Source: Acidimicrobiia bacterium
Lineage (GTDB): Bacteria; Actinomycetota; Acidimicrobiia; IMCC26256; PALSA-610
Assembly (NCBI GenBank): GCA_036271555.1
Contig: DATBAK010000054.1
Span: 1-38,260 of the forward strand
Length of the DNA stretch: 38,260 nt
Direction of reading: 5' to 3'
Shown here: positions 222 through 30,463 of the stretch, piece after piece
Numbering within the stretch: the first letter of the stretch is position 1
How the letters are laid out: each line of letters starts with the position of its first letter
Program-made: the position numbers and the translations under genes
Notes under the pieces: model-generated
Database searches by the model: none
The model's input: the letters and a program-made list of their open reading frames with translations, nothing else
What the model was told of the DNA's origin: nothing

Positions 222-350
222 TCTGGTCGCGCTCGCGACGCTCGCTGCTCCGGACGCCTCAGTCGGCGAGCCGAGCAGGCCGCGCAGCGACCCGCTCGTT
301 CCGGCGGGCACGACACAGCTCTGAACGACCGCCCGACGCGGCGGTCGCTT
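222..350 (+). repeat. Dispersed intergenic repeat, type I copy (GGTCGCGCTCGC...CGCTCCGGACGCCTCAG core)
   Basis: ctggtcgcgctcgcgacgctcgctgctccggacgcctcag immediately after bS22 stop; same core recurs at ~9110, 10789, 12072, 19052(-), 21335. Confidence 0.6.
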
Positions 351-363
351 CGTTTTGTCCCCG

Positions 364-1236
364 TCAGGCGTCGAGGCGCTCGACGCCGCTCGACGCGGTG
401 GATCCGGCGACGGTGAGCCGCGCGATGCCGGATTCGGCGACCCGGGCCACCGCGGCCGCGGCGGCGGCGGCGTCCTGGAAGAGCGATGCGCACGCAGAGC
501 CACTCCCCGCGAGCACGGTGGGCGCGCCGGTCGCGACCTCGAGCGCCTCGCGGAACCCCCGCAGGCGGGGCTCGACGTCTTCCGCGGCGGGCTCGAGATC
601 GTTCACGAGGTCGCCGACCCCGTCGACGGTGACGACGCGCTCTGATCTCGGACCGCCGAGCGCGTCCCACGCCCGGAAGACACGGGGCGTTGCGAGCGCG
701 AACGGCGGTACCGCGACCACGACGTGTAGTGCCGGCACATCCGTGCGCTCGACGGTCTCGCCCCGACCCCGCATCGACGCGGCACCGCCGTGCACGCAGA
801 AGGGGACGTCGGATCCGAGGTCGGCGCCGAGCGTCGCGAGCTCGAAGGTCGACAGGTCGAGATCGAGGAGCCGGTCGAGCGCATGCAGCGCCGCCGCGGC
901 GTCGGCCGACCCGCCACCGAGGCCCGCCTCCGCGGGGATGTGCTTGTCCAACTCGATGCGAACGCCGTACGCGCGGTGCGCGTCTCGCGCGCGGTCGAGC
1001 ATCATCCGCGCCGCGCGCACGACGAGGTTGTCGCCGCCGGGTGTGACGCCCTGGGCCGCGGGTCCGGTGAGCACCAGCTCGACGCGGTCCCGCCGCTGCC
1101 CGGCCGTGACCGTGAGTTGATCGTGCGGCTCGGTCACCGACACGACGAGCGCGTCGAGCTCGTGGAATCCGTCGGCGCGGCGACTCAAGACGCGCAGCGA
1201 CAACGTGAGCTTGGAGTTGGCACGCCACCGTGTCAC
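364..1236 (-). CDS. ispE: 4-diphosphocytidyl-2-C-methyl-D-erythritol kinase (IspE)
   Basis: GHMP kinase motif PAEAGLGGGSADAAA; N-terminus KLTLSLRVLSRRADGFHELDAL typical of IspE; GTG start at 1236 overlaps ksgA stop (GTGA). ORF-track 455-aa version has a spurious N-terminal extension. Confidence 0.8.
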   Translation of the reverse strand: MTRWRANSKLTLSLRVLSRRADGFHELDALVVSVTEPHDQLTVTAGQRRDRVELVLTGPAAQGVTPGGDNLVVRAARMMLDRARDAHRAYGVRIELDKHIPAEAGLGGGSADAAAALHALDRLLDLDLSTFELATLGADLGSDVPFCVHGGAASMRGRGETVERTDVPALHVVVAVPPFALATPRVFRAWDALGGPRSERVVTVDGVGDLVNDLEPAAEDVEPRLRGFREALEVATGAPTVLAGSGSACASLFQDAAAAAAAVARVAESGIARLTVAGSTASSGVERLDA

Positions 1237-2075
1237 GCCGCAACCTCGCGTTCTGCGCGGGCGATCGCCGCCCATTCGTCGAGCCCGAGGGTTTCGGCAC
1301 GCGCGCTCGGATCGATGCCTGCGCCCTCGAGCAACGGAACCGTGCGATCGCCGAACGCGACCGCGAGCGCTCGCCGCAACATCTTGCGCCGCGTCGCGAA
1401 GCCTGCGCGCACGATCTCGAACATACGGCCGACGTCGGGTACGTCGACGGGTGCCGATGCGCGCCGTTCCAGGCGCACGAGGGCGGAATCGACCTTTGGT
1501 TTCGGTACGAACACGGTCGGCGGCACCGTACCCGCGACCTCCGCGTGTGCGTAATACGCGACCTTCACCGACACCGCGCCGTACGCCGCGCTTCCCGGTG
1601 TCGCCGCGAGCCGCTCCCCCACCTCGCGCTGCACCATCACGAAGAGCCGTTCGACCATCGGCGCGTCCTCGAGCACGCGCACGACGACCGGCGTCGCGAC
1701 GTTGTACGGAAGGTTCGACACCATCACCCAACGCGACGCGCTCGCGAGCAGCGCGTACCAGTCGATCGTCATCGCGTCGCCCTGCACGACGCGCGCGGCG
1801 CGTCCCGCGAGCACTTCGTCGAGCACCGGCACGAGGTGACGGTCGAGCTCGAGCGCGACGAGCTCGGGCGCGCCGGCGTCGAGGAGCGCGAGCGTCAGCG
1901 ATCCGAGACCGGGTCCGATCTCGACGACCGGCACGCGGGCGTCGACTCCCGCGAGGCGTGCGATGCGGCGCGCGGTGTTCGGATCGGCGAGGAAGTTCTG
2001 CCCGAGGGCGCGCCCCGGGCGCAGGTCGTGACGGTCGAGGAGCGCCTGGATCGACGCGGGCGTGAGCAGGTCCAC
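1233..2075 (-). CDS. rsmA: 16S rRNA (adenine1518/1519-N6)-dimethyltransferase RsmA/KsgA
   Basis: 280-aa ORF with LGQNFL, VVEIGPGLGSLT SAM motif and NLPYN catalytic motif; conserved ksgA-ispE adjacency. Confidence 0.9.
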   Translation of the reverse strand: MDLLTPASIQALLDRHDLRPGRALGQNFLADPNTARRIARLAGVDARVPVVEIGPGLGSLTLALLDAGAPELVALELDRHLVPVLDEVLAGRAARVVQGDAMTIDWYALLASASRWVMVSNLPYNVATPVVVRVLEDAPMVERLFVMVQREVGERLAATPGSAAYGAVSVKVAYYAHAEVAGTVPPTVFVPKPKVDSALVRLERRASAPVDVPDVGRMFEIVRAGFATRRKMLRRALAVAFGDRTVPLLEGAGIDPSARAETLGLDEWAAIARAEREVAA

Positions 2076-2123
2076 CCGCTCAGTCTGGCCGCCGGACGCG
2101 CGCGTACTCGGGTTGACCCGAAC

Positions 2124-2852
2124 CTACGGGTAGCCGCGCCACGGTTCGAGCGGCGGCCAATGGGTGCCACCGGGCGCCCGCCCGACCGCCCAGGCGAGCA
2201 ATTCCGCCGCCGTGTCCTCGACCGTGACGACCCCGCGCACGGGGTCCCCGGCGGACGGCACGACGAACGTGCTCCACCCGGCGTCGCGCGCGACGAGTCG
2301 CACGGCGGTTCCGGCCGGGAGCCGCCACGCCAGCGCGCCGACCTGCCGGCGCAGCTCGTGATCGACGTAGTCGGGATGCCAGATGCTCGCGTCGACGCCG
2401 TCGACGCCGAGGTCGGTTGCGTGCAGCGCAACCTCGCGCCAACGCAGGAACGGAAGGTCGACCGCGGGCCACGGCTCGCCCCACCGCAACGCGTCGCGCG
2501 CCCACGTCGCGTCGTCGACGCGCGCGAACGCCGCGGCCATCGCGTCGTCGGACGCGCGTAGATCGTCGATCAACACGCGCGCGTCTCGCGTCGAGCCGGC
2601 CTCGATGTCGCCCGAACGCTGCGCGGACCCGCCCGGGTACTGCTCCACCGGTTCGCCGCGCAGCACCGCTTCGATCATGCGCGTATGACTGTCGGCATTG
2701 CGCGCGAGATGGGTGAGCACGTGACCCACACTCCATCCCGGCAACAACGAAGGTCGTCGCGCGAGCGCGTCGTCGACACCGTGCGCGTCGAGCGCTCGTA
2801 CGAGTCGTTCGTGAGCCTCACGCGCACCGCGTGCCGCTCGCGCGCCGTCCAT
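2124..2852 (-). CDS. MDMPI/DinB-like (mycothiol-dependent maleylpyruvate isomerase N-terminal domain family) protein
   Basis: ATG at 2852 (codon 101 of ORF 2124..3152); GWSVGHVLTHLARNADS...EAVLRGEP motif typical of TIGR03083-type MDMPI N-domain; upstream part of the ORF is R-rich junk. Confidence 0.6.
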   Translation of the reverse strand: MDGARAARGAREAHERLVRALDAHGVDDALARRPSLLPGWSVGHVLTHLARNADSHTRMIEAVLRGEPVEQYPGGSAQRSGDIEAGSTRDARVLIDDLRASDDAMAAAFARVDDATWARDALRWGEPWPAVDLPFLRWREVALHATDLGVDGVDASIWHPDYVDHELRRQVGALAWRLPAGTAVRLVARDAGWSTFVVPSAGDPVRGVVTVEDTAAELLAWAVGRAPGGTHWPPLEPWRGYP

Positions 2853-2863
2853 GTGCCCGGAGG

Positions 2864-3859
2864 CTACGGCAGCCCCGCGCAGCGACCGTTCCAGTGGCGC
2901 GCGCCCTGCCACTTGTAGAGCGTGAGCGCGAAGTAGTCCTGCACCGCGGGCGGGGCCTCGTCGGGCAGCACGCCGACCCACTCCTCGTGGCCGACGTGGT
3001 CCGCGACCCCGTTCCACGTGACTTGGTCGAACTGGTACGCGCCGCGGTAGCGGCCGCCGTCGCCGATCGCGTGGTACCCGCCGGCGTCGATCGACTCGTA
3101 GCCCTTCGTGCAGATCAAGAACGGATTGTCGGCGATCGAGCCCTTGCCCCACGGCGGGATCGGGACGTGCCGCTCGTCGCGGTCGTCGGGCCGGTGCTCG
3201 GCGGTCAGCCGCGGACCGGCCGTGACCGGCGTGATCCCGCGGGCCCGGTCGTAGGCGGGCCGCGGGCCAGCCCCGGACGGCGGGGCGGCGGCCGCGGCAC
3301 GCACGACCGGCGCGGCCGTCCCGGACACGGCGGCCGGGGCCGCCGCCGAGGCGTGCCCCCCGGGCGCGAGCGCGGTGGCTGCGACCGCCACGAAGGCACT
3401 CGAGAGACCGACCGCGAGCGCGAGTTGGCGACGCCGATACGAGCGCCGCACCGCGCGGCGGTGCTCGACGTAGACGAGGCGGCGATCACCGAGCCGGCGC
3501 ACCACCGGATGCGCGCTCCCGCCGACTTCGACCGCGTAGGCCTCGACGGGGATGTCGAACGGAACGATCGGACGCGGCCGTCGACCCGGACGCGTGCCGT
3601 GGCGCGGCGGAGTCGCGGGATGCAGCGCGTGCGCGCGTCGCGCGGGCGGACGGATGTCGATGCCGTCGCTGCGGCGCGCGTGCACCGGCGCCCAGAGCGG
3701 ATGCAGCACGACCGGCGGCTCGTCGTGAAGCGGCGGCGCGCTCGCGTGCACGCGACTCGGACCGGCGGGGACGATCTCGATGAAGCGGGTGCGCCCGAGC
3801 GCCGCGCGCGTGCCGGGTGAGAGGTGACGACGTCGCGCGCTGCGAACGTCGCCGCGCAC
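2864..3859 (-). CDS. Membrane-anchored Rpf-like (resuscitation-promoting factor family) transglycosylase-domain protein
   Basis: C-terminus CTKGYESIDAGGYHAIGDGGRYRGAYQFDQVTWNGV...WQGARHWNGRCAG resembles Rpf domain (GGVQFDQGTWEANG...WGAWPVC); TM helix LALAVGLSSAFVAVAATALA; high GC3 extends upstream to ~3859 (GTG). Position downstream of tatD matches rpfB synteny. Start uncertain. Confidence 0.55.
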   Translation of the reverse strand: MRGDVRSARRRHLSPGTRAALGRTRFIEIVPAGPSRVHASAPPLHDEPPVVLHPLWAPVHARRSDGIDIRPPARRAHALHPATPPRHGTRPGRRPRPIVPFDIPVEAYAVEVGGSAHPVVRRLGDRRLVYVEHRRAVRRSYRRRQLALAVGLSSAFVAVAATALAPGGHASAAAPAAVSGTAAPVVRAAAAAPPSGAGPRPAYDRARGITPVTAGPRLTAEHRPDDRDERHVPIPPWGKGSIADNPFLICTKGYESIDAGGYHAIGDGGRYRGAYQFDQVTWNGVADHVGHEEWVGVLPDEAPPAVQDYFALTLYKWQGARHWNGRCAGLP

Positions 3860-4046
3860 CGCCGGCTTGACCGGCCGCAAACCCGTGACGGGTCGACGCG
3901 CAACGCTTCGAATGAGACGCCTCCCGGTTGGCTGGCACGACGCGCGACGCGACAGGGCCCTCGGCTCCGCCCGCGGCGTGCGCAAGCTAACGATTCCTGC
4001 CCCGGCCTTCCAATTGCGAACCGCGCAGCGAGCGCGCGCTCGGTGA

Positions 4047-4841
4047 TCAGGCCGACGGAGAGAGCGCGAACACCCTGGTCGCGTTGGCTCTCGTCGCGTC
4101 GGCGACGATCTCGACGGATTCGTCGCGAGCGGCCGCGAGCGCGGCTCCGACGACCGGGACCAGCGCGGGTTCGTTGCGCTTGCCGCGGTGCGGTACCGGC
4201 GCGAGGAACGGCGCGTCGGTCTCGACGAGCAGCGCGTCGCGCGGCACGACGGCCGCGGCTTCGCGCACGTCGCTCGCCGACGCAAACGACACGATGCCGC
4301 TGAACGACAACAGCGCGTCGATCGCGAGCGCGCGGCGCGCTTCGTCGACGCCGCCGGTGAAGCAGTGGAAGATCGTGCGCGCGGGCACACCGCTCTCGGC
4401 GAGCACGCGGAACGTGTCGTCCCACGCGTCACGCGTGTGGATCACCAGCGCGCGATCGAGCTCGTGCGCGAGCGCGATCTGCGCCGCGAACGCGCGCGCC
4501 TGCGCGTCGCGCGGTGAATGCTCGTAGTGCAGATCGAAACCGGCTTCGCCGATCGCGACGACGCGCGCGCTCGAACGCGCGAGCGCGACGAGGTCGTCCC
4601 ACTCTGCATCGAGTCGCGACGCGTCGTGCGGGTGCAGCCCGACGGTCGCGTAGACGTTCGGATGCCGCTCCGCGAGCTCGACCGCGGCGCGCGACGTCGC
4701 CAGGTCGGTGCCCACGCACACGAACGCGGCCACGCCCGCGTCGGCGGCACGCGCGAGGTCGCCTTCGGGGTCGGCGGGCGGGTGGTCGGGACGCTCGGGC
4801 TCCCACTGGAGATGGCAGTGGGAGTCGATCCAGGCGACCAT
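4047..4841 (-). CDS. tatD: TatD family metal-dependent DNase/hydrolase
   Basis: MVAWIDSHCHL N-terminus, GEAGFDLHYE, ETDAPFL motifs; ATG 4841..4839 overlaps metG stop (ATGA). Confidence 0.85.
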   Translation of the reverse strand: MVAWIDSHCHLQWEPERPDHPPADPEGDLARAADAGVAAFVCVGTDLATSRAAVELAERHPNVYATVGLHPHDASRLDAEWDDLVALARSSARVVAIGEAGFDLHYEHSPRDAQARAFAAQIALAHELDRALVIHTRDAWDDTFRVLAESGVPARTIFHCFTGGVDEARRALAIDALLSFSGIVSFASASDVREAAAVVPRDALLVETDAPFLAPVPHRGKRNEPALVPVVGAALAAARDESVEIVADATRANATRVFALSPSA

Positions 4842-6403
4842 CAGGCGTCGGCGCGCTCGATGCGGGGGAAGAGCGGCGCGCCGCGCTCGAGGGGGCTCCC
4901 CACCGGGAGAGAACCCCAGGTCGCGGCGCCTGGGAGCCGCTGATCCTCGGGCCGGCCGGCGAGCCCGAGCCGCCGCCAGAGCTCCGCTGCCGCGTGGGGG
5001 ATCGCCGGCGACGCGAGCAGCGCGACGAGTCGCAGGGCCTCGAGACACGCGCCGATCACCGCCGCGGTCGCCGCGGTATCGCCCGCCTTGTTCGTGGCCC
5101 ACGGTTGGCGGTCCTCGATGTACGCGTTGGTCGCGCCGATCAGATCCCACACCGCGCCGAACGCGGAGGAGAACGCGAGTCGCTCCATCGCGTCGCACTG
5201 CGCGGTGAACGCGGACTCCGCCGCGGCGCGCAGCACCGAGTCGTCGCGCGCGTCGGGCACGACACCGCCGCAGTAGTTCGTCGCCATCGTGAGCACGCGG
5301 TTCGCGAGGTTCCCGAAGTTGTTCGCGAGATCCGCGTTGTAGCGCGCGACCATCGCCTCGTACGAGAAGTCACCGTCGGGACCGAAGCGTTGGTCGGCGA
5401 GGAAGTGGTAGCGCACACCGTCGACGCCGAAGTCGCGCACGAGATCCGCGGGCGCGATCTGGTTCATGCTCGTCTTCGACATCTTCTCGCCGCCGACGAG
5501 CAGCCAGCCGTGCGCGAACACGCACTTCGGCAGTTCGAGCCCCGCGCTCATCAGCATCGCGGGCCAGTACACGGCGTGAAAGCGCAGGATGTCCTTGCCG
5601 ACGAGGTGGTAGTTCGCGGGCCAATAGCGATCGAAACGCTCCGGATCGGTGCCGTAGCCGATCGCGGTGCAGTAGTTGAAGAGCGCGTCGGCCCACACGT
5701 ACGCGACGTGCTTCTCGTCCCACGGCAACGGGACACCCCACGTGATCGACGTGCGGCTCATCGAGAAGTCGCGCAGCCCCGACTTGATGAACCCGAGCAC
5801 CTCGTTACGACGCGTGTCCGGCTGCACCGCCTCGGGATGCTCCTCGTAGTGAGCCAGGAGCCGCTCCTCGAAGCGAGAGAGCTTGAAGAAGTAGTTCTCC
5901 TCGGTGACCCGCTCGACGGGTCGGGCGTGGATCGGACAGAGCCCGTCGACGAGCTCGTCCTCGGTGTAATACGCCTCACAGGAGACGCAATAGAGGCCCT
6001 CGTAGACGCCGAGCTCGACGTCGCCGGCGTCGTACAGCGTCTGCAGGAACTGCTGGACGGCGACGCGATGACGGGGCTCGGTCGTGCGGATGAAGTCGTC
6101 GTATGCGATGTCGAGCAGGTCCCAGGCCTCGCGGAACTGCGCGCTCGTGCGGTCGACCATCTCCTGCGGTGAGATCCCGTTCGCCTCGGCCGCGCGCTGC
6201 AGCTTGAGCCCGTGCTCGTCGGTTCCGGTCAGGTAGACGACGTCGTCGCCCCACAGCCGGCGCCACCGCGTGAGCGCGTCGCCCGACACCGTCGTATACG
6301 CATGACCGATGTGCGGCGCGTCGTTCGGGTAGTAGATCGGAGTCGTGACGTAGAACGGCTCGGGCACGGAAGCACGCCTCGCTCGGCTGGACGGTTCGCC
6401 CAT
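4841..6403 (-). CDS. metG: Methionine--tRNA ligase (MetRS)
   Basis: PFYVTTPIYYPNDAPHIGHAYTTV (HIGH motif), KMSKT motif (GGEKMSKTSMN); start taken at ATG 6403 (MGEPSS...); ORF-track start 6481 also possible. Confidence 0.85.
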   Translation of the reverse strand: MGEPSSRARRASVPEPFYVTTPIYYPNDAPHIGHAYTTVSGDALTRWRRLWGDDVVYLTGTDEHGLKLQRAAEANGISPQEMVDRTSAQFREAWDLLDIAYDDFIRTTEPRHRVAVQQFLQTLYDAGDVELGVYEGLYCVSCEAYYTEDELVDGLCPIHARPVERVTEENYFFKLSRFEERLLAHYEEHPEAVQPDTRRNEVLGFIKSGLRDFSMSRTSITWGVPLPWDEKHVAYVWADALFNYCTAIGYGTDPERFDRYWPANYHLVGKDILRFHAVYWPAMLMSAGLELPKCVFAHGWLLVGGEKMSKTSMNQIAPADLVRDFGVDGVRYHFLADQRFGPDGDFSYEAMVARYNADLANNFGNLANRVLTMATNYCGGVVPDARDDSVLRAAAESAFTAQCDAMERLAFSSAFGAVWDLIGATNAYIEDRQPWATNKAGDTAATAAVIGACLEALRLVALLASPAIPHAAAELWRRLGLAGRPEDQRLPGAATWGSLPVGSPLERGAPLFPRIERADA

Positions 6404-6501
6404 TCTGACCGGTGGGGAGCCCGTTCCCGCGACGAAAACGCTACGCTCCCCGGCCAGTGGGGCGCCCGATCGAGGCGTCACCGGCCCTGTGGGGGGAGTA
6501 C

Positions 6502-6621
6502 ATGAACTCCAGTCAGGCGCAGATCGCGGTCGCGGTCGTTACGCGCCCAACGCTGAACGCTCTGAAGGATCGGAGTGGTCCGAACGCTTCGGATCCGGCG
6601 ACCGTGGTCGAAGCCGCATGA
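6502..6621 (+). CDS. Candidate 39-aa upstream ORF coupled to the AbrB-like gene
   Basis: GGGGGGAG immediately upstream, ATG 6502, MNSSQAQIAVAVVTRPTLNALKDRSGPNASDPATVVEAA, TGA 6619-6621 overlapping ATG 6618 (ATGA). Speculative. Confidence 0.2.
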   Translation: MNSSQAQIAVAVVTRPTLNALKDRSGPNASDPATVVEAA

Positions 6622-6923
6622 ACTCCATCGGCATGACCCGCCGCATCGACGCGCTCGGACGGATCGTGGTCCCGGCCGAGCTCCGCCGCATCCTCGAGAT
6701 CGGGGTCGGTGATCTGCTCGACATCCGTGTCGACGGCGGCCACCTCGTACTCGCCAAGGTCGAACGAACGTGCGTGTTCTGCAGCTCCTCCGACGGGCTC
6801 AGTCCCTATCGCGACAAGCTCGTGTGCGCGGCGTGCGTCGAGATGCTGACGGTCGGCGTCACCGCGAACGGTCAGGACTCGACGTTCACCACCACCGACG
6901 GGAGCTCGACCGCGAGCTCGTAG
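6618..6923 (+). CDS. AbrB/MazE/SpoVT-family DNA-binding protein with C-terminal CxxC...CxxC zinc-ribbon-like tail
   Basis: MNSIGMTRRIDALGRIVVPAELRRILEIGVGDLLDIRVDGGHLVLAKV aligns with AbrB N-domain (MKSTGIVRKVDELGRVVIPIELRR); followed by CVFC...CAAC; divergent from metG. Confidence 0.7.
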   Translation: MNSIGMTRRIDALGRIVVPAELRRILEIGVGDLLDIRVDGGHLVLAKVERTCVFCSSSDGLSPYRDKLVCAACVEMLTVGVTANGQDSTFTTTDGSSTASS

Positions 6924-7729
6924 GCCCGCCGGCGCGCGATGCCGAGCGCACCCGCGACGCTCGCGGCCGCATCCCGACGGCTCGCGCCCGCGGCGAGCGA
7001 GCGCGTCAGCGCGGAACGGATCTCCTCGTCGCCGACCGGCGCAGGTGGGCCCGCGGGCGCGACGAGCACCACGCACTCGCCGCGCAGGTCGCGCGCCGCG
7101 AACTGCTCCGCGAGCTCACCGAGCGTGCCGCGCTGCACCTCCTCGTGCAGCTTCGTGAGCTCGCGTGCGACGACCGCGCGGCGGTCCTCGCCGAGCGCGT
7201 CGCGCAGCTCGGCGAGCGTCGCCGCGACCCTCATCGGTGACTCCAGGAGGATTGTCGTCGCGTGTGCACGTCGGAGCGCGTCGATCCGCTCGGCGCGCGC
7301 CGCACCCTTGCGCGCGAGGAAGCCTTCGAAGACGAACGGCGTCGCCGGCAGGCCCGACACGACGAGCGCGGCGAGCACCGCGCTCGGACCCGGCACGACC
7401 TCGACCGGCAACTCCGCGTCGATGCACGCGCGCACGATTCGCTCGCCGGGATCCGACACTGCGGGCGTACCCGCGTCCGTCACGAGCACGACTCGACTAC
7501 CGGCGCGGATCAACTCGACGATGCGCGCGGATTCGCGCTGCTCGTTGTGCGCGTGCACCGAGCGCAGCCGATTCCCGGCCGGGATGTCGGTGAGGCTCAG
7601 CAGCTTTCGGGTCTGGCGGGTGTCCTCCGCGGCGATGACGTCGGCGCCGCGGAGCTCGTCGGCGGCGCGGGGCGAGAGGTCGCGCAGGTTGCCGATCGGG
7701 GTCGAGACCACGACGAGTGCTCCGGTCAC
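6872..7729 (-). CDS. rsmI: 16S rRNA (cytidine1402-2'-O)-methyltransferase RsmI
   Basis: GALVVVSTPIGNLRDLSPRA...DVIAAEDTRQTRKLL, tetrapyrrole-methylase fold motifs; GTG start at 7729 overlapping DUF192 stop (GTGA); 3' end overlaps the convergent AbrB-like gene by ~50 nt. Confidence 0.85.
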   Translation of the reverse strand: MTGALVVVSTPIGNLRDLSPRAADELRGADVIAAEDTRQTRKLLSLTDIPAGNRLRSVHAHNEQRESARIVELIRAGSRVVLVTDAGTPAVSDPGERIVRACIDAELPVEVVPGPSAVLAALVVSGLPATPFVFEGFLARKGAARAERIDALRRAHATTILLESPMRVAATLAELRDALGEDRRAVVARELTKLHEEVQRGTLGELAEQFAARDLRGECVVLVAPAGPPAPVGDEEIRSALTRSLAAGASRRDAAASVAGALGIARRRAYELAVELPSVVVNVES

Positions 7730-8055
7730 CCGCGAACCTCGATGATGTCGCCGACCTCGAGCTTCCAGCGATCGAACGCGCCGGCGGACGCCTCGATCGC
7801 GAAGTACGCGCGCGGCACCGGCCGCGACAGCCGCCACGGCGCGAGCGTCGTCATGTGCAGGACGAACCCGTCGCGATCGCAGAAGGCGACATCGAGGGGG
7901 AATCGCATCCCGAGCGAGTGCACCTGACGGCACGGTCGCAGCACGATCGCGCCGTCCTGCGCGTCGCGACCGAGCAGACCACGTCGCCGCTGCCGGCGGG
8001 TCACCGCCACCTCGGCCGCGGCCAGCACGTCGTCGCCGCGAACCAGCCAGGCCAT
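7726..8055 (-). CDS. DUF192 (COG1430) domain protein
   Basis: 109 aa; RRRGLLGR...HSLGMRFPLDVAFCDRDGFV...YFAIEASAG pattern of DUF192. Confidence 0.65.
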   Translation of the reverse strand: MAWLVRGDDVLAAAEVAVTRRQRRRGLLGRDAQDGAIVLRPCRQVHSLGMRFPLDVAFCDRDGFVLHMTTLAPWRLSRPVPRAYFAIEASAGAFDRWKLEVGDIIEVRG

Positions 8056-8059
8056 GACG

Positions 8060-9103
8060 TCAGACGTTGAAGCGGATCTCGAGCACGTCGCCGTCGCGCA
8101 CTTCGTACTCCTTGCCCTCGAGCCGGATCTTGTTGAGCTCCTTCGCCTTCGCCCAGGACCCGACGTCGAGCAACTCCTGCCAGTCGATCGCCTCGGCGCG
8201 GATGAAGCCGCGCTGGAGATCGGAGTGGATCACGCCCGCGCACTCGGGCGCGCGGGCGCCGGCGCGGAACGTCCACGCGCGCGTCTCGTCGGGACCGGTC
8301 GTGAGGAACGTGCGCCGGTTCAAGAGCTCGTACGCGCGGCGCGCGAGACGGGGCACGACGCTCTCGCCGATGCCGAACGTCTCGAGCATCTCGAAGCGCT
8401 CGTCGGGCTCGCACGCCGCGATCTCGGACTCGACTTCCACGCACGCGGCGAGCGCGTCGGTCCCGAAGGGCGCGGCGACGGCATCGCCGTCGGCGACCTG
8501 GTCCTCGGCGACGTTCACGACGACGAGATGCGGCTTGCTGGTCAGCAGGAAGCACGGCGCGAGCAACGTGCGCTCGTCCGCGCTCAGCTCCGATCGGTAG
8601 ATCGGGGTACCCGCTTCGAGCACCGTGTGCGCGTGCTCGAGCGCCGCGATCTCGGGCAGCAGCGATTTGTCGCCCTTCGCCGCGCGCCGCTGACGGTCGG
8701 TGCGGCCCTCGACCGTCGCGAGGTCGGCGATCACGAGCTCGAGCTCGAGTCCCGCGAGGTCGCCGGTCGGATCGGCGGGGCCGGCCACCGGGCTGTCGAA
8801 GGCGCGCAGCACGAACAGGATCGCGTCGCAGTTGCGGAGCGCGCCGAGGAAGCGGGTGCCGAGCCCTTCACCGGGCTTCGCGCCGGGCGGGAGCGCGATG
8901 TGCACGAGCTCGAAGCCCGCGTGCACGACCTTCTTCGACTGCGACATCGAGGTGAGCCGCTCGACGCGCTCGTCGGGCACCGGCGCGATCGCGACCGCCG
9001 ACTCGAAGACCCCTGGATCGGGGAGGCCCGTGAGGGCGCTGAAAAGGAGGTTCGAGCCCGCGTCGGAGAGACCGACGAGTCCGAGGTTCTCCATACGGAC
9101 CAT
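8060..9103 (-). CDS. ychF: YchF/Ola1-family ribosome-binding ATPase homolog with degenerate Walker A
   Basis: Full-length collinear similarity to E. coli YchF (ALTGLPDP.., LLTSKPHLVVVNVAED, TGPDETRAWT, IHSDLQRGFIRAE, C-terminal TGS-like EVRDGDVLEIRFNV) but P-loop reads GLVGLSDAGSNLLFSALTG instead of GxVGLPNVGKSTLFNALT. Confidence 0.8.
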   Translation of the reverse strand: MVRMENLGLVGLSDAGSNLLFSALTGLPDPGVFESAVAIAPVPDERVERLTSMSQSKKVVHAGFELVHIALPPGAKPGEGLGTRFLGALRNCDAILFVLRAFDSPVAGPADPTGDLAGLELELVIADLATVEGRTDRQRRAAKGDKSLLPEIAALEHAHTVLEAGTPIYRSELSADERTLLAPCFLLTSKPHLVVVNVAEDQVADGDAVAAPFGTDALAACVEVESEIAACEPDERFEMLETFGIGESVVPRLARRAYELLNRRTFLTTGPDETRAWTFRAGARAPECAGVIHSDLQRGFIRAEAIDWQELLDVGSWAKAKELNKIRLEGKEYEVRDGDVLEIRFNV

Positions 9104-9109
9104 TCTGTC

Positions 9110-9180
9110 TCGTCGCGCTCGCTGCGCTCGCCGCTCCGGACGCCGCAGCCCGCGATTCGGGCGGGCCGCACGGCGACCCG
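9110..9180 (+). repeat. Dispersed intergenic repeat, type I copy with GGGCGGGCCGCACGGCGACCCG tail module
   Basis: tcgtcgcgctcgctgcgctcgccgctccggacgcc...gggcgggccgcacggcgacccg between ychF start and bL37; tail module shared with copies at 20565-20595 and 22045-22075(-). Confidence 0.6.
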
Positions 9181-9241
9181 GCCGTCTGGTGCGAACGTGG
9201 TTCGCCGCCGGACGCGCCCTTCAGGTAGCGTGCCCGTTCTC

Positions 9242-9328
9242 ATGAGCAAGAAGAGCAAGCTCCGTCGACTGCGCGCCCGCCGGAACAAGGCGAACCACGG
9301 CAAGAAGCCGCGCGCCGGCCGCCGTTAA
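9242..9328 (+). CDS. 50S ribosomal protein bL37-like small basic protein (28 aa)
   Basis: ATG 9242, MSKKSKLRRLRARRNKANHGKKPRAGRR, TAA 9326-9328; KANHGKKP core matches mycobacterial bL37 (..KANHGKRPN..). Hidden at the tail of a long antisense ORF (8054..9328). Confidence 0.6.
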   Translation: MSKKSKLRRLRARRNKANHGKKPRAGRR

Positions 9329-9330
9329 TT

Positions 9331-9416
9331 CTGGTCGGGCTCGCAAGCTTCGCCCTCCCCGACGCCTCAATCCCCAGCCGAGGTCGCGCTGCTCGCTTCG
9401 CTCACGCGCTCAGGCG
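9331..9416 (+). repeat. Dispersed intergenic repeat, type II copy (GGTCGGGCTCGCAAGCTTCGCCCTCC...GACGCCTCA)
   Basis: tggtcgggctcgcaagcttcgccctccccgacgcctcaa...gctcgcttcgctcacgcgctcaggcg directly after bL37 stop; supplies stop and C-terminal codons of the convergent membrane protein gene. Confidence 0.65.
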
Positions 9417-9852
9417 CGAACACCGTGCCGTGAGGCAGCCGCGCCCGTTCGAGCCACAGGATCAGGAGCCCGAGGACCGAGGTCGACGCGAGGCTCGCGA
9501 GCAGCGCCACGCTCTGCGTGCCGTCGAACGGTCCGAGATGGCGCGCGTGGTACACGAAGTGCGGCACGCCGTACACGAGCCATCCCAGCGAGGCCGCGAC
9601 GATCGTCGAGCGCGCGAGCGACACGAGCGCGCAGAGGCTGACGACCGCGAGCGCGAGGTTCAGCGCGCCGACGTCGCGCACGAGATGCTCGTTGTACGGC
9701 CCGTCGACCGCGACCCATATCTGTCCGAGGCCCGGGAACTTGTCGTAGAACGAACGGGGCGCGAACGCGGCCCAGCCTCCGACGGTCACGCCCGAGATCG
9801 TCAGGATCGCGAGCAGCACGCGCTGCGCGGCGCCGACTCTGTCGTCACCCAC
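9367..9852 (-). CDS. Hypothetical integral membrane protein (about 4 TM helices)
   Basis: 161 aa, hydrophobic segments VLLAILTISGVTVGGWAAFA, ALNLALAVVSLCALVSLA, SLGWLVYGVPHFVY, VALLASLASTSVLGLLILWL; C-terminal 15 aa encoded inside repeat copy. Confidence 0.55.
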   Translation of the reverse strand: MGDDRVGAAQRVLLAILTISGVTVGGWAAFAPRSFYDKFPGLGQIWVAVDGPYNEHLVRDVGALNLALAVVSLCALVSLARSTIVAASLGWLVYGVPHFVYHARHLGPFDGTQSVALLASLASTSVLGLLILWLERARLPHGTVFAPERVSEASSATSAGD

Positions 9853-10777: not shown

Positions 10778-10788
10778 GATCAGGCCTT

Positions 10789-10874
10789 TCTGGTCGCGCT
10801 CGCTGCGCTCGCCGCTCGGTGACGCGAGATGGGCCGCCGGCGAGGCCGCCCTGCTCGCTTCGCTCGACGGCTCA
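10789..10874 (+). repeat. Dispersed intergenic repeat, type I copy
   Basis: ctggtcgcgctcgctgcgctcgccgctcggtgacgc...ctgctcgcttcgctcgacggctcagcc between Rrf2 stop and epimerase start. Confidence 0.6.
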
Positions 10875-11378: not shown

Positions 11379-11382
11379 GTTC

Positions 11383-11409
11383 CGGATATTACGTATCCGT
11401 GATATCCGA
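11383..11409. promoter_or_regulatory. AT-rich composite inverted repeat (CGGATAT-N13-ATATCCG with inner GGATA-TTACG-TATCC)
   Basis: Only AT-rich island in the region; lies 5-30 nt upstream of the Rrf2 start (contains TAATAT -10-like hexamer on the Rrf2 strand) and ~170 nt upstream of the TnpB-fragment start. Confidence 0.5.
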
Positions 11410-11581
11410 CGCCAATCCCGCTTGCCGACGTGCGTCCGCGTCCTCCACGATGCGCCCGTCAACGGCATCTTGCAGGACGTCGTCGTCACGCGGCCGCAGG
11501 CGCGAGCGGAGCGAGCGTCGAGGCTCGCCAGGGAGCGCGCGAGTCGGCGACCCGCAGGGGAGCCGGCGAAGGAGCGAGCGA

Positions 11582-12125: not shown

Positions 12126-12132
12126 GCGCGCG

Positions 12133-19034: not shown

Positions 19035-19051
19035 CGTGGATTCGTTCCCAC

Positions 19052-19142
19052 AGACCGGGCGGGTCGCTTCGCGGACCGCCTGAGCCGGGCGCCGAGGCGT
19101 CAGCCGAGGCCTCAGGAGCGGCGAGCGTCAGCGAGCGCGACC
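19052..19142 (-). repeat. Dispersed intergenic repeat, type I copy (reverse orientation)
   Basis: Reverse complement reads ggtcgcgctcgctgacgctcgccgctcctgaggcctc...gcgacccgcccgg; abuts WS/DGAT start codon. Confidence 0.55.
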
Positions 19143-21334: not shown

Positions 21335-21400
21335 TGGTCGCCGCTCCTGACGCCTCAGCCCCCACCTCGGACGGTCCGCGTCGCGACCCGTCCGCCCCTG
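21335..21400 (+). repeat. Dispersed intergenic repeat, truncated type I copy
   Basis: ggtcgccgctcctgacgcctcagcc (deletion derivative of the 12072 copy) directly after the Mo-enzyme stop. Confidence 0.5.
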
Positions 21401-21410
21401 CGGGAACGTG

Positions 21411-22067
21411 ATGCCATCCGCCGAGATCGAGCGCTTCGACCGCGTCGAGCGGCTCGTGCACTGGACGACCGCCGCGCTCGTCGGTGTCCTCATCGCGACC
21501 GGCGCGTGCCTGTATCTCGGCGAGCTCGAGGCGATCGTCGGTCGGCGCGAGCTCGTGCGCACGATCCACGTGGTCGCGGGACTGAGCCTTCCGGTCCCGC
21601 TGATCCTCGGCCTGATCACGCGCGCGGGGCGCGCGCTCCGGCGCGACCTCGGCCGCCTCAATCGTTGGAGCATCGACGACAAGCGCTGGTGGCGGCGCGA
21701 CGCGCGCGCGGGAGTCGAGCTCGGCAAGTTCAACCCAGGGCAGAAGCTGAACGCGACGTTCCTCGCCGCCGCGCTCGTGCTGATGATCATGAGCGGCTCG
21801 ATCATGCGCTTCTTCGCGCCGTTCCCCGACTCGTGGCGCACCGGCGCGACCTCGGTGCACGACTGGTTCGCGCTCGGTATCGGCATCTCGGTGATCGGGC
21901 ACATCATGTTCGCGACGCGCGACCCGATCGCGATGCGCGCGATGCGTTCGGGGCCGGTACCGGAGGTCTGGGCGCGCCAGCACCGCCCGCGCTGGCACGC
22001 CGAGGTGGTCGGCGTCGCGGACCTCGGGGACCGAGATGGCGATCAGCCCCGACGGGCGGGTCGCTGA
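21411..22067 (+). CDS. Cytochrome b561-family di-heme membrane cytochrome b (partner of Mo-oxidoreductase)
   Basis: RVERLVHWTTAALVGVLIATG, HVVAGLSLPV, HDWFALGIGISVIGHIMFA His ligands in 4 TM helices; ATG 21411 (GTG 21408 also possible). Confidence 0.7.
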   Translation: MPSAEIERFDRVERLVHWTTAALVGVLIATGACLYLGELEAIVGRRELVRTIHVVAGLSLPVPLILGLITRAGRALRRDLGRLNRWSIDDKRWWRRDARAGVELGKFNPGQKLNATFLAAALVLMIMSGSIMRFFAPFPDSWRTGATSVHDWFALGIGISVIGHIMFATRDPIAMRAMRSGPVPEVWARQHRPRWHAEVVGVADLGDRDGDQPRRAGR

Positions 22068-22130
22068 GCGGCCCACCCGACTCGTCGCGTGAGGCGCCGA
22101 GGAGGGCGAAGCTTGCGAGCCCGACCAGAA
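22045..22130 (-). repeat. Dispersed intergenic repeat, type II copy (reverse orientation)
   Basis: Reverse complement: ttctggtcgggctcgcaagcttcgccctcctcggcgcctcacgcgacgagtcgggtgggccgctcagcgacccgcccgtc; overlaps last codons of cytochrome b gene. Confidence 0.65.
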
Positions 22131-22150
22131 AGGATCGCTAGCCTCGACCC

Positions 22151-25299: not shown

Positions 25300-26277
25300 T
25301 CACTTCGACGCGTCGGCGATCGAGAACGCGCCGACGTTCGTGAAGCTCAGGCTCGTCACTCCCGACGCGCAGTCGCCGGTGGTCGGCGTCGCGTGCAGAA
25401 CCACCTCGAGAGTCGCGCCGGCGTCGGCGCCACTCGTGATCACGCCATGGAGACTGAGCTCGTAGGGATCGTCGCGGTTGTTCGTCGACGCGAGGTGCGC
25501 GCGCTTCAAGATCGACACGAAGTGGTTCGACCAGTCGATCTCGAGCATCCCGAAGAACCGCTGTTGCTTGCCGGGTGGGCACGTCACCGACGACGCATCG
25601 AGCGCGCCGATCACCGTGGCGGCGGGCGCGGTGTCGGCGGCCTGACAACCCGACACCTGGAACGATTCGAAGTGCAGGTGCTGGGCCGCGGCGCCGGCAA
25701 CGAGCCCGGGGCTGACCGTCGCGGACGCGGCGACGTCGTCGCAGCTCGCGTACGGGCCGCCGATCGTCATCGCGTTCGTGTTGTGCATCGTGATCGCGCC
25801 GACTCCGGCGCTGCAGTCACCGGTCTTGGGCACGAGGTCGAGGCGCACGCGCAGTGTCGCCCCCGTCTGGCTGCCACCGGTGACGCGACCGTCGAGCCGC
25901 ACTTCGAACCGGTCGTCGGGATTGCCGGTCGACGCGACGCGGGCGGCCCGGAGGTACGAGGTCGCGCCGTTGTTCCAGTCGATCTGCAAGGAGCCGCGCA
26001 GCCGGTCGGTCGGCGCGAGCGGACACGAAGCGGACGGGCTCGTCAGCGTTCCCGTTGCGGTCGCGGCCGCGCCGCCGACGTGGTCGCACTTCGAGACGCG
26101 GAACGTGTGCAGGTGGAGCTCGACGGGGCCGGCCGTCGCCTGCCACTTCGGCGTGAGCTGCGCCGCGCCGACGACCGACTTGCAGCGGGTCGGCGGGTTC
26201 GCAACCGATCCCGCGGGCGCGGCCGCGAGCGCCAACGCCGCGGTCGCCAGCATCGCCACGAGCCCGGTCCTCGCCAC
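25300..26277 (-). CDS. Secreted protein with internal tandem duplication of a ~140-aa 4-Cys domain (unknown function)
   Basis: Signal peptide LVAMLATAALALAAAPAGSVA; two repeats each with VELHLHTF/QHLHFESF, LQIDWNNGATSYL/LEIDWSNHFVSIL, GATLRV/GATLEV and 4 Cys; start GTG 26277 preferred (ATG 26331 lies inside a repeat copy). Confidence 0.55.
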   Translation of the reverse strand: MARTGLVAMLATAALALAAAPAGSVANPPTRCKSVVGAAQLTPKWQATAGPVELHLHTFRVSKCDHVGGAAATATGTLTSPSASCPLAPTDRLRGSLQIDWNNGATSYLRAARVASTGNPDDRFEVRLDGRVTGGSQTGATLRVRLDLVPKTGDCSAGVGAITMHNTNAMTIGGPYASCDDVAASATVSPGLVAGAAAQHLHFESFQVSGCQAADTAPAATVIGALDASSVTCPPGKQQRFFGMLEIDWSNHFVSILKRAHLASTNNRDDPYELSLHGVITSGADAGATLEVVLHATPTTGDCASGVTSLSFTNVGAFSIADASK

Positions 26278-26292
26278 CCGCCCGGTGTTCGA

Positions 26293-26395
26293 TGGTCGGG
26301 CTCGCACGCTTCGCCCTCCTCGTCGCCTCAACCGTCGCGTCCTACGCGAGCGAGCGTAGGGACCACCACGCTAAGTGGCGTCGGAGCGTGAGGCC
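26293..26395 (+). repeat. Dispersed intergenic repeat, type II copy with internal hairpin CCTACGC-GAGCGA-GCGTAGG
   Basis: tggtcgggctcgcacgcttcgccctcctcgtcgcctcaa...; hairpin at 26341-26360. Confidence 0.65.
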
Positions 26396-28628: not shown

Positions 28629-29500
28629 CCGGCGGATGAACCGGTGAGTGCGGGCGCGAGCTCGCGCCACACGGCCGACGGCAGGTCGTAATCGGCCTGC
28701 AACACCTGGATGCACACGTGGTTCGCGCCCGCGGCGCGCTGCGCGTCGACGCGCGTCTTGATCGCGTCGACGTCGCCCCACGCGACGATCGCGTCGACGA
28801 GCCGGTCGCTACCGGGCGCCGCGACGTCGTCCTCGGTGAAGCCGAGTCGCAACAGGTTGTTCGTGTAGTTCGGGAGGCCGAGGTAGATCGCGAGGTGCTG
28901 GCGCGCGATCGCGCGCGCCACGGCCGCGTCGGTCTCGAGCACGACCGCCTGCTCGGTGGCGACGAGCGCATGGGGACCGACCGCCTCGCGCGCGACCGCG
29001 CTGTGCTCGGGCGGCACGAGGTACGGGTGCACCCCGGTCGTGCGATCGCGCGCGAGCTTCAACATGCGCGGGCCGAGCGCCGCGAGCGCACGCGATTCCT
29101 TCGGCAACGACGGCGACGCGGCGTCGAGCCCGTCGAGGTACTCGACCATCACGGAGTACGGCTTCGTCCACTTCCCAGGCTCGGACTGATCGATGAGCGC
29201 GGCGTGGCTCACGCCGAGGCCGAAGAGCGCGCGCGCCTGCCACTCGGCCGACCATGATCCGCGCCGCGTCGCAATCTCGTCGGGCGTGTGCATCCACACG
29301 TTGAGGATGCCGGTCGCGACCGCGGCACGAGGCGCCGCGCCGAGCAGGTGCTCCATCGCTGCGAGCACGTCGCCACCGACGTCGGGGATCCAGAGCGCCG
29401 AGTACCCGAGCGCGTCGAGCTCCGCGGCCGCGTCCGCAATCGCGCCCTCGTCGCCGTAGCGAAGCTGGCCCGCCCACACGCCGGTTCCCGAGAGGTTCAC
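28625..29500 (-). CDS. LLM-class (luciferase-like) F420-dependent oxidoreductase
   Basis: 291 aa; TGVWAGQL...LGYSALWIPDVGGD N-terminus and overall LLM/F420 pattern. Confidence 0.65.
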   Translation of the reverse strand: MNLSGTGVWAGQLRYGDEGAIADAAAELDALGYSALWIPDVGGDVLAAMEHLLGAAPRAAVATGILNVWMHTPDEIATRRGSWSAEWQARALFGLGVSHAALIDQSEPGKWTKPYSVMVEYLDGLDAASPSLPKESRALAALGPRMLKLARDRTTGVHPYLVPPEHSAVAREAVGPHALVATEQAVVLETDAAVARAIARQHLAIYLGLPNYTNNLLRLGFTEDDVAAPGSDRLVDAIVAWGDVDAIKTRVDAQRAAGANHVCIQVLQADYDLPSAVWRELAPALTGSSAG

Positions 29501-29571
29501 CCGTCGACGTTACCCAGGCTGCCCTCGTACGCGCAGCCGCAGCTGGGGCGCCCATGCGAGCGACTCGCGAT

Positions 29572-30366
29572 CTACGGCTCGGGCTGGCACGTCGGGCACC
29601 AGTAGGTGACGCGCTCGTCGTCGCGACCACCACGACGGACGATGCGGGTGCGGCAGCGCGGGCAGAGCCGACCGGCCTTGCCGTAGACCGCGAGCCCGCC
29701 TTGGTACGTGACGCGTCGCTTCGTGCCGAGGTTCGCGCGCAGTTGGCGGTGCGCGGTCGCGTACATGCGCCGGCGGGTCGCGTCGGCGAGCGCGCCGATC
29801 GGCGTGAACGGCCATACCTTCTCGGCCCAGCAGACCTCCGACTTGTACACGTTGCCGATGCCCGCCGCGACCCGCTGGTCGAGCAGCACGAGCGCGAGCT
29901 CGGTCGCGGGATCGAGGCGCGCGACGCGCGCGAGCACGGCGTCGAGATCGGGCGCGTCGAGACAGAGGTCGGGACCGAGCGCGGCGATTGCGTTCGCCGC
30001 GTGGGTGACGTCGCGCGCGTTCTCCGTCCGCAGCTCGACGAGCGGTGCCGCGAAGCACACCGCGGTCGTGCCGCCCTCGACCTCGAGCACGACGCGCGCG
30101 GTGTGCGCGGGCCGCCGCCAGCGCTCACCCGGCGCGTACACCTGCCACGCGCCGGTCAGCTGCATGTGCGTGTGCAGCACGTGACCGTCGTCGAAGTGGA
30201 TCAGCAGGTGCTTGCCCTGCGCGACGACCTCGGTCACGGTCGCTCCGGGTTCGACGCCCCGCCGACCGCGCGGGTCGCGCCGGACCTCGACCTTCACGAC
30301 GCGCTTCCCCGCGAGTGCGCCGCGCAACTGCGCCGCGGCGCGATGGATCGTGTCGCCCTCAGGCAT
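29572..30366 (-). CDS. nei: Fpg/Nei-family DNA glycosylase (endonuclease VIII-like)
   Basis: MPEGDTI N-terminus (Pro2 and Glu3 catalytic residues), H2TH region, C-terminal CPRC...CPTC zinc finger. Confidence 0.8.
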   Translation of the reverse strand: MPEGDTIHRAAAQLRGALAGKRVVKVEVRRDPRGRRGVEPGATVTEVVAQGKHLLIHFDDGHVLHTHMQLTGAWQVYAPGERWRRPAHTARVVLEVEGGTTAVCFAAPLVELRTENARDVTHAANAIAALGPDLCLDAPDLDAVLARVARLDPATELALVLLDQRVAAGIGNVYKSEVCWAEKVWPFTPIGALADATRRRMYATAHRQLRANLGTKRRVTYQGGLAVYGKAGRLCPRCRTRIVRRGGRDDERVTYWCPTCQPEP

Positions 30367-30377
30367 TCAGCGCCACA

Positions 30378-30463
30378 GCGCGCGAGCGAAGCGAGCGGCG
30401 TCCCCTCGGCTGCTCCCATCCCGCGTCATGGAGGACGAGCTTGCAAGCCCGACCATCAGTTGA
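30378..30463 (-). repeat. Dispersed intergenic repeat, type II copy (reverse orientation)
   Basis: Reverse complement: gatggtcgggcttgcaagctcgtcctccatgacgcgggatgggagcagccgaggggacgccgctcgcttcgctcgcgcg; between nei start and FadD stop. Confidence 0.6.

Follow-up and report, generated by a model that had tools for sequence, protein, structure and literature searches.

Probable MIRU-like dispersed repeats with an invariant head and exchangeable tails at gene boundaries of Acidimicrobiia

A repeat family in a 38-kb contig

We analysed one contig of an Acidimicrobiia genome (DATBAK010000054.1; 38,260 nt, 71% G+C), called the window in what follows. Its genes include an msrP-msrQ pair preceded by a WS/DGAT gene, two small ribosomal-protein-like genes, a YchF-like gene and an Fpg-like glycosylase gene. 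At the ends of these and other genes lie eleven copies of a short dispersed repeat (E1 to E11, table 1), i.e. one copy per 3.5 kb, with units of about 55–105 nt. A first-pass annotation, made from the sequence alone, had proposed such a family with two subtypes, and all eleven copies that it listed are present, displaced by a few nucleotides at most.

We searched the window with a nhmmer profile built from the 50 nt at the 5' end of each copy. It returned the 11 sites with E-values from 8.3e-12 to 3.8e-4, and the next-best match (E 0.13) is noise. The type I core has three matches at up to three mismatches and the type II core four exact ones; neither occurred in 100 dinucleotide shuffles. A repeat finder independently recovered the same families (D1, D2, D6 and I1–I4). 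The shuffles and the profile search thus agree that the two subtypes form a genuine dispersed family, as first proposed, and they rule out chance similarity between GC-rich sequences. We found no Rfam match at gathering thresholds in the window and none on any element at E<=1. An origin from tRNA or tmRNA was discarded, as no such sequence was found, and annotated plasmids and phages gave only chance matches (E>=0.06). A search of the searchable literature, by sequence and by topic, gave no earlier description of the repeat. The family is previously undescribed, and it is unusual in its non-palindromic head shared across genera, its exchangeable tails and its tight placement at stop and start codons.

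Table 1. Position, modules and surroundings of the eleven copies in the window (nt positions).
Copy	Position	Strand	Type and modules	Site and effect on coding
E1	222–312	+	type I + tail B; head 225–251, linker 252–262, hairpin B 272–298	bS22 stop (208–210), then 11 nt; between convergent genes
E2	9108–9197	+	type I + tail B; head 9111–9137 (starts CGTCG), hairpin B 9158–9184	divergent gap between ychF-like start (9103, -) and bL37-like gene (9241–9328, +)
E3	9329–9416	+	type II + tail C (second head 9380–9414); head 9333–9358	3' of bL37-like stop: TAA-TTCT-GGTCG; 3' part, on opposite strand, is last ~16 aa and stop of gene 9367–9852(-)
E4	10786–10875	+	type I + tail C; head 10792–10818	antisense; fills Rrf2(-)/epimerase(-) gap; AGAAAGG 7 nt upstream of epimerase ATG (10777)
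E5	12069–12126	+	short type I; head 12073–12099 + linker, no full tail	14 nt past stop of gene 11399–12058; convergent with thioesterase gene (stop 12133)
E6	19043–19142	-	type I + tail B; head 19115–19142, hairpin B 19056–19082; linker partly duplicated	antisense; between DUF459 (stop 19034) and WS/DGAT; head directly abuts WS/DGAT ATG (19143)
E7	20523–20626	+	type II + tail B; head 20524–20549, hairpin B 20571–20597	inside WS/DGAT ORF, encodes last 39 aa; ORF end ATGA overlaps msrP ATG (20627)
E8	21335–21408	+	type I, head internally deleted (21336–21347), tail B hairpin 21368–21394	fills msrP/msrQ gap
E9	22045–22133	-	type II + tail B; head 22101–22126, hairpin B 22053–22079	antisense; in 3' end of msrQ-like gene; new stop 22065–22067 within hairpin; ancestral stop visible at ~22139
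E10	26290–26395	+	type II head 26294–26319; third tail type: hairpin 26341–26360 + further small hairpin	antisense, between lactamase_B(-) and gene 25300–26331(-)
E11	30367–30461	-	diverged type II head 30430–30454, tail C 30373–30399	sense, between AMP-ligase(-) and Fpg-like gene(-)

Anatomy of the unit

The alignment of these copies, together with copies found elsewhere, reveals an asymmetric and modular unit. It consists of a pyrimidine tract, a head of 26–28 nt, a linker and an exchangeable tail. The pyrimidine tract (e.g. CTTTCT) may shrink to a single T. The type I head reads GGTCGCGCTCGC-TG/TT/GA-CGCTCGCCGCTCC and the type II head GGTCGGGCTCGCA(A/C)GCTTCGCCCTCC. The head is non-palindromic and contains two CGCTCGC-like half-sites that are direct, not inverted, repeats of each other. 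The linker ends in (G)ACGCCTCA(G). Six copies then have tail B, a GC hairpin of the form CGGGCGGGCCGC-loop-GCGACCCGCCCG, and three (E3, E4 and E11) have tail C, with the hallmark GCTCGCTTCGCTC. This string is also the core of the E5 head (12079–12091) and of the heads in sister genomes; tail C is therefore a second, degenerate head. The tail of E10 is a third kind of hairpin, and E5 is nearly tailless. The sub-modules that the first-pass annotation saw shared between copies are real, including GCTCGCTTCGCTC, but the latter is the core of the head itself and not a separate tail module.

Head and hairpin differ in the way they are conserved. In 11 copies of the tail-B hairpin, 93% of the cells of the alignment are paired, against 35–46% when the partner arm is slid. 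Two pairs changed on both sides (G-C, A-U, C-G), and the covariation measures were equalled by only 12–16 of 500 shuffles. In an alignment of 33 copies of a sister family, five hairpin pairs are kept by compensatory changes (e.g. CG to GC in 10 copies), while the head is invariant and so gives no pairing signal; predicted folds place the head in no consistent stem either. Since the head is invariant while the hairpin pairs change in a compensatory way, the former is under sequence constraint and the latter under structural constraint. The family had been called REP-like (repetitive extragenic palindrome), a label that does not hold, as the conserved part is a non-palindromic, invariant head and not a hairpin. 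Two further structural ideas were dropped. Types I and II might have differed by a compensatory change (GCG..CGC vs GGG..CCC), but they are better aligned with a one-base 3' deletion, and the head is without pairing signal. A second small 3' hairpin (CGTTCC..GGAACG) had only 55% of its cells paired.

Junctions with and without copies

We compared the window with loci in other genomes and metagenomes (designated by L-numbers). Relatives whose MsrP is 78–80% identical (L123/L124, L127 and L128) are syntenic with the window over ~10.8–31 kb, and they have no head in ~88 kb against 11 in the 38 kb of the window. In L123, L127 and L128, the WS/DGAT gene encodes 456–464 aa and overlaps msrP by 4 nt (ATGA). 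The protein of the window has 495 aa, the last 39 of which come from E7, and the ATGA overlap with msrP is kept. The distance between msrP and msrQ is -4 (L123), +16 (L127) and +4 nt (L128), against a gap of 73 nt filled by E8 in the window. Similarly, the Rrf2 and epimerase genes overlap by 4 nt in L128, against a gap of 94 nt filled by E4. The msrQ and aminotransferase genes are 10 nt apart in L127 and L128; in the window, E9 lies upstream of the ancestral stop and supplies a new one. L126, which is closer to the window (89% identity, 72% G+C), carries orthologous copies at two of the four junctions. Its WS/DGAT gene keeps its own TGA, 14 nt before the head of the E7 ortholog, and its msrP/msrQ copy has a full-length type I head, in line with the earlier description of E8 as a deletion derivative. 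E8 differs from it by a net 12 nt, and the reading frame is therefore kept. There is also a reciprocal case: L034 has a unit of the sister family in the divergent gap between an SDR gene and a thioesterase gene, where the window has an unrelated spacer of ~50 nt.

Because the relatives without heads have 4-nt overlaps or junctions of a few nucleotides, and because the closer relative shares two of the copies, we conclude that the copies are insertions. Junctions of up to 10 nt make up ~4% of the intergenic target (by the gene calls of L128), yet 4 of the 7 insertions that can be compared fall in them. Such a share is unlikely if non-coding DNA was hit at random; the estimate loses much of its force if gene ends count as tolerant target.

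Several observations on these loci are worth recording. E7(+) and E9(-) form an inverted pair that brackets msrP-msrQ, with arms of 115 nt that are 77% complementary and 1449 nt apart. We rejected the idea of a composite transposon that brought these genes in, since msrP-msrQ is present without the elements in relatives. Two metagenome contigs that are 99.7–99.9% identical to the window (L121 and L122) differ from it by 14 single bases. Five of these (20543, 20552 and 20555 in E7, 22090 and 22131 in E9) are in elements (7% of the sequence compared), and the three in E7 lie within 13 nt. Such clustering could result from relaxed constraint or from gene conversion between copies. The genes at 25300–26331(-), a 343-aa ORF (open reading frame) with no Pfam match, and at 29572–30366(-), the Fpg/Nei-like glycosylase, have no counterpart in L123, although synteny is otherwise kept. 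An element directly adjoins the upstream side of each (E10 and E11, respectively), and these two copies may mark breakpoints of rearrangement or gene gain. In Mycobacterium tuberculosis, an array of the MIRU-VNTR type (mycobacterial interspersed repetitive unit–variable number tandem repeat) also lies just upstream of fpg (PMC2734929). As two lineage-specific genes adjoin elements, integron cassettes of the attC kind were considered; they were rejected on account of differing orientations and the lack of conserved R and L boxes. Finally, the motif CGTCAACGT is conserved in the SDR/thioesterase gap (window ~12965–12975, L034 ~7750–7760), the rest of which is unrelated, and may be an operator or promoter element.

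Placement at gene boundaries

To place copies outside the window, we called gene boundaries from a simple frame call based on GC3 (G+C at third codon positions), choosing, for 110 heads among the matches listed in the genome scan described below, the frame with the best coding signal over the preceding 300 nt. In 36 cases the preceding gene is on the strand of the head, and in 34 of them its stop is separated from the head by 1–19 nt. The distance is exactly 7 nt for eleven of the stops, in the arrangement C-T(A/G)(A/G)-CTCTTCT-GGTCGC, and all three stop codons are seen. When the preceding gene is on the opposite strand, its ATG is often 0–14 nt from the head. The copies of the window occupy three convergent and one divergent junction, and among co-directional pairs three are in sense and four in antisense. 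Among the matches listed, 64 copies had both flanks called, of which 24 are sense, 17 antisense, 17 convergent and 6 divergent. Since all types of junction and both orientations occur, the copies are not simply 3'-end elements.

Many copies affect the coding of their neighbours. The first-pass annotation placed the family almost exclusively in intergenic gaps. The units are mostly extragenic, but the statement is too strong: according to the public gene caller E7 lies wholly within the 495-aa WS/DGAT ORF, and E9 and E3 also encode the last ~14–16 codons of the MsrQ-like gene and of gene 9367–9852, respectively. Three proteins hence end in residues encoded by elements. Other copies contain mini-ORFs that bridge the flanking genes. 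That of E8 has 26 codons, from the ATG at 21331 to the TGA at 21409–21411 (MMVAAPDASAPTSDGPRRDPSAPAGT), and its ends overlap the msrP stop (ATGA) and the GTG/ATG of msrQ (GTGA). That of E11 has 29 codons, from the ATG at 30456–30454 to the TGA at 30369–30367 (MVGLASSSSMTRDGSSRGDAARFARALWR); the ATG shares one base with the TGA of the AMP-ligase gene (TGATG), and the TGA directly precedes the ATG of the Fpg-like gene (30366). In L126, the public gene caller calls a 30-aa bridging ORF in the msrP/msrQ copy, which starts MVALAPLAAPDAS. Among the matches listed, bridging ORFs occur in 8 of the 24 sense co-directional copies (with two further read-throughs) and in 2 of the 17 antisense ones. In antisense copies, the pyrimidine tract reads AGAAAGG on the coding strand of the flanking genes and precedes the next start codon. 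This sequence is complementary to CCUUUCU, the usual 3' tail of the 16S rRNA.

The mini-ORFs (MMVAAPDAS... in E8, MVGLASSSS... in E11 and the one in L126) and the three element-encoded protein ends might suggest that the family is a conserved small protein or protein tail, with the similarity resulting from coding constraint. This is hardly credible. The frame in which E7 encodes the WS/DGAT tail differs from that of the mini-ORFs, and antisense copies, where they are read at all, are read on the opposite strand. Copies between convergent genes lie past the stop codons, and it is the nucleotide sequence that is conserved, with no pattern at third codon positions. Mixed frames and strands effectively refute it. 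As the frames differ between copies and both orientations occur, the similarity does not come from a coding tail conserved in a single frame, which had been named as an explanation to be checked.

Another explanation is that the unit is a signal of the host for gene ends, i.e. a portable terminator or 3'-end stabiliser. The A-poor, YC-rich head would be a Rho-loading (rut-like) site, and the hairpin would serve as a pause or as protection of the 3' end. A 3'-end or stability role was also the function first suggested for the copies, several of which follow stop codons or sit between convergent genes. RUT sites are YC-rich and Actinobacteria score highest for Rho dependency, and Streptomyces 3' ends are marked by U-less stem-loops (PMC13613805). 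The closeness of the heads to stop codons (1–19 nt), the covarying hairpins and the slight enrichment of convergent junctions (17 of 64 among the matches listed) are as such a signal would predict. Moreover, the C-minus-G and YC content of the head region on the sense strand exceeds the 92nd percentile in 7 of the 11 copies, and the translation of sense copies in operons would be explained as an escape from polarity. The remaining four copies are not rut-like, however, and the placement misfits. Antisense copies are nearly as common as sense ones (17 vs 24 among the matches listed, 4 vs 3 in the window), some copies lie in divergent gaps, others are translated or abut start codons, and the junctions of relatives do without the element. 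Whole elements fold no better than shuffles (z from -1.2 to +0.8). E1 is followed by its gene's own canonical terminator. The latter had been included in the first copy, drawn at 222–350; the element is real, but it ends near 312, and 326–357(+) is a separate intrinsic terminator with the stem CGACCGCC/GGCGGTCG followed by CTTCGTTTTG, located between E1 and the stop of a convergent ispE-like gene. A scan of positions 1–20000 for a hairpin followed by a T tract found its hairpin (326–347) and three sites outside the elements, one of which (9085–9101) ends just before E2, and no element hairpin with a T tract. We consider a gene-end signal unlikely as an account of the family, although sense copies after terminal genes may have a terminator-like role.

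Distribution in other genomes

A degenerate pattern of the head, run against 185,579 species genomes, matched at least 120 loci. Among the matches listed, single ones in unrelated phyla sit in coding-looking sequence and fit chance, and several metagenome-assembled genomes (MAGs) of Acidimicrobiia/Actinomycetota give many contigs each (JBOGFJ01, JBPCMN01, JBQTGU01, DATBEZ01, CAWAJR01, CAVXFZ01, JAODBJ01 and JAMXLJ01). In those MAGs, the head is nearly letter-identical to type I of the window, and the rest of the unit is specific to the genome. The family thus extends beyond the contig. L034, from a fairly close relative, shares 2.5 kb with the window at 75% nucleotide identity, and its head is ~96–100% identical; the head is therefore better conserved than coding DNA. 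A lineage-specific scan of metagenomes gave 117 matches, most of them chance matches in coding sequence. About 15 are genuine and of the window's own type, including type II units with tail B or C and one tandem pair.

Some loci carry tandem arrays. Arrays of three to four heads, with a period of 33–36 nt, are found in L095 (5580–5730), L010 (3776–3870), L021 (30–125) and L039 (6838–6961), and arrays of whole units (94–99 nt) in L076 and L093. In Gordonia lacunae BS2 (scaffold18.1, L114, - strand, 6624–6200), an ORF is cut by the contig end, and its C-terminal 87 aa match the last 63 positions of the NCBIfam model NF033542, 'IS110 family RNA-guided transposase' (E 2e-6). An array of head-like units (GGTCGGGCTCGCAAGCTCGCTCCTCAGGGAGCAGG) with a 35-nt period begins ~35 nt past the stop of this ORF; its first unit is truncated. 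The arrangement resembles the insertion of an IS110-family element into head-like repeats. Besides Gordonia, no further IS110-like sequence was found in the 1.6 Mb examined. Two different Verrucomicrobiota MAGs (L028 ~6770–6800 and L041 ~6178–6204) share cagcGGTCGGGCTCGCGGTAGCTCGCCCCTCCA, which has the GCTCGC-N-GCTCGC design of the head and no Rfam match.

The conservation of the head might also be that of a non-mobile binding site for a nucleoid-associated or regulatory DNA-binding protein, arisen or copied by local recombination. In favour of this, the head is invariant and non-palindromic, with two direct CGCTCGC half-sites at a spacing of about one helical turn. Its conservation across genera exceeds that of coding DNA, and there are tandem arrays that consist of heads alone. 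However, operators do not lie after stop codons or in operon junctions, and the copies occur every 3.5 kb beside unrelated housekeeping genes. Furthermore, whole units of ~100 nt were copied with their tails, and not the site alone, and they are patchily distributed among close relatives. Hence, we regard binding sites of this kind as very improbable.

Origin of the family

In our judgement, the units are probably lineage-expanded, non-autonomous dispersed repeats of Acidimicrobiia, similar to MIRUs and inserted at gene boundaries. We infer mobility, the role of the head and translational coupling from the sequence comparisons. For mobility, the argument is one of presence and absence of copies, because no mobilising gene, no terminal inverted repeats and no consistent target duplication were found.

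Several observations weigh against this account. No transposase is found among the ~37 genes of this single contig. The alignments show no terminal inverted repeats, the 5' pyrimidine tract and head having no inverted counterpart at the 3' end, and by eye the flanks showed no consistent duplication; the ideas of a target-site duplication and of targeting of Shine-Dalgarno (SD) sequences were dropped. In the strict sense, the units are thus not miniature inverted-repeat transposable elements (MITEs), the other kind named in the initial description. TGA- or CTGA-like strings flank several sense copies, and CTRR stands at both ends of units of the sister family, where visual inspection of 15 copies found it identical in ~3, close to the chance level. 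Three samples that are 99.7–100% identical over 5 kb show no change in length or copy number. Part of the closeness to stop codons would arise in any compact genome in which the unit takes up the entire gap. Bridging ORFs, present in 5 of 5 cases in the lineage of the window, are a tendency and not a universal rule. The covariation of tail B was measured on 11 sequences that include two orthologous pairs. The unremarkable folding of whole units also counts here, but the z-scores are uninformative because G+C is 72%. Lastly, no pair of heads brackets 0.5–3.5 kb, as a parent insertion sequence (IS) might, among the matches listed (120 loci, ~0.9 Mb), a search that is not genome-wide.

If the units are mobile repeats of this kind, the head would be the recognition site of a putative trans-acting protein that spreads or multiplies them, and the hairpin a structural module acting as single strand. 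Copies would persist only where the flanking genes stay expressed. Sense copies in operons could do so when translated, either as a mini-ORF that overlaps the stop upstream and overlaps or abuts the start downstream, or by read-through from the preceding ORF, which would preserve the coupling of termination and reinitiation, as proposed for MIRUs. Antisense copies would offer, at their head end, the SD-like AGAAAGG to the downstream gene. Copies after terminal genes would be mere filler of the 3' spacer. The anatomy would also agree with a copy-out process with priming at the head end, instead of classical cut-and-paste, in that there is one conserved end, a purine tract of variable length on the opposite strand that ranges from A to AGAAGAG, and truncation and module swapping at the other end. 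A more specific proposal, that the invariant 27-nt head is the handle of a conserved insertion machinery of Acidimicrobiia/Actinomycetota that targets translation boundaries, seems to us distinctly unlikely.

The spread of MIRU-type repeats has been an open question ever since they were described, and only a few closely related genomes carry MIRUs. The present family provides a wider handle for comparison, with its head in several uncultured lineages of Acidimicrobiia/Actinomycetota and its varied tails. As sister genomes at ~80% protein identity lack the head, profiling of gene content could reveal the mobilising protein. The junctions with and without a copy are clean enough for reporter tests of translational coupling through the repeat. 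The copies also affect the annotation of MAGs, by lengthening ORFs (WS/DGAT by 39 aa), replacing C-termini and adding mini-ORFs, spurious or real. At one copy per 3.5 kb, assembly and binning will be affected too.

Other features of the window

Two small basic ORFs each have an element at most 11 nt downstream: a bS22-like one at 109–210(+) (MGSLIKKRRKRMRKKKHKKLLKKTRWQRRQQGK) and a bL37-like one of 28 aa at 9241–9328(+) (MSKKSKLRRLRARRNKANHGKKPRAGRR). The YchF-like ORF at 8060–9103(-) matches Pfam in the C-terminal YchF domain only, and its N-terminus (MVRMENLGLVGLSDAGSNLLFSALTG) has no recognisable P-loop; it may be a degenerate paralogue or have a mis-set start. A look-up of the exact DUF459 protein gave no match. 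The sole Rfam match at E<=1, inside the MBOAT gene at 17129–17265(-), is to the Cis52 small RNA (27 bits against a gathering threshold of 56, E 0.18) and is most likely due to chance.

Comparison with known repeat systems

The units resemble Correia elements, which are MITEs, and Rickettsia palindromic elements (RPEs) in being non-autonomous insertions that alter gene ends. As with RPEs, copies tolerated in ORFs add residues, here the tails of WS/DGAT (E7) and MsrQ (E9). In contrast to MITEs, no terminal inverted repeats, no consistent target duplication and no parent IS were found among the sequences analysed, and in contrast to both groups their insertions are confined to the extreme ends of genes.

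REPs and bacterial interspersed mosaic elements (BIMEs), which are mobilised by REP-associated tyrosine transposases (RAYTs), are likewise short, abundant, mostly extragenic and present in both orientations, with a GC-rich hairpin. They can be targets of IS110-family insertion, and the head-like array of Gordonia abuts the end of an IS110-family transposase gene. However, the conserved part of the present units is a non-palindromic 27-mer and not the hairpin. The latter varies and covaries in sequence, whereas in REPs it is the conserved recognition element. There is no GTAG-type tetranucleotide in the units, and we saw no RAYT among the genes of the window.

BOX elements of Streptococcus pneumoniae are made of boxA, boxB and boxC modules in variable combinations; they are intergenic and have no coding capacity for a transposase. 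The modular make-up and the intergenic location are shared with our family, but there is no sequence relation. To our knowledge, BOX elements have not been reported to bridge stop and start codons by mini-ORFs.

The comparison with MIRUs is one of described features. According to Supply et al. 1997, MIRUs reportedly occur inside operons and are oriented as the genes around them are translated. They are units of 40–100 bp scattered over many intergenic loci (PMC2734929). As mobile units they insert at start codons, and the coupling of an internal ORF at -4 nt leaves expression little disturbed (PMC12548453). The family described here similarly places units of ~55–105 nt, 11 of them in 38 kb, at actinobacterial gene junctions that are a few bp long in relatives without the repeat. 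E7, E8, E11 and both L126 copies would likewise couple the flanking genes, by stop/start overlap or read-through. The tendency to tandem copies is also found, as head-only arrays and as a head followed by a degenerate head in E3, E4 and E11. The differences are that the hosts belong to the class Acidimicrobiia and not to Mycobacterium, that only 3 of the 11 copies of the window are in sense inside operons, and that the unit is asymmetric, with an invariant head that different genera share and exchangeable tails.

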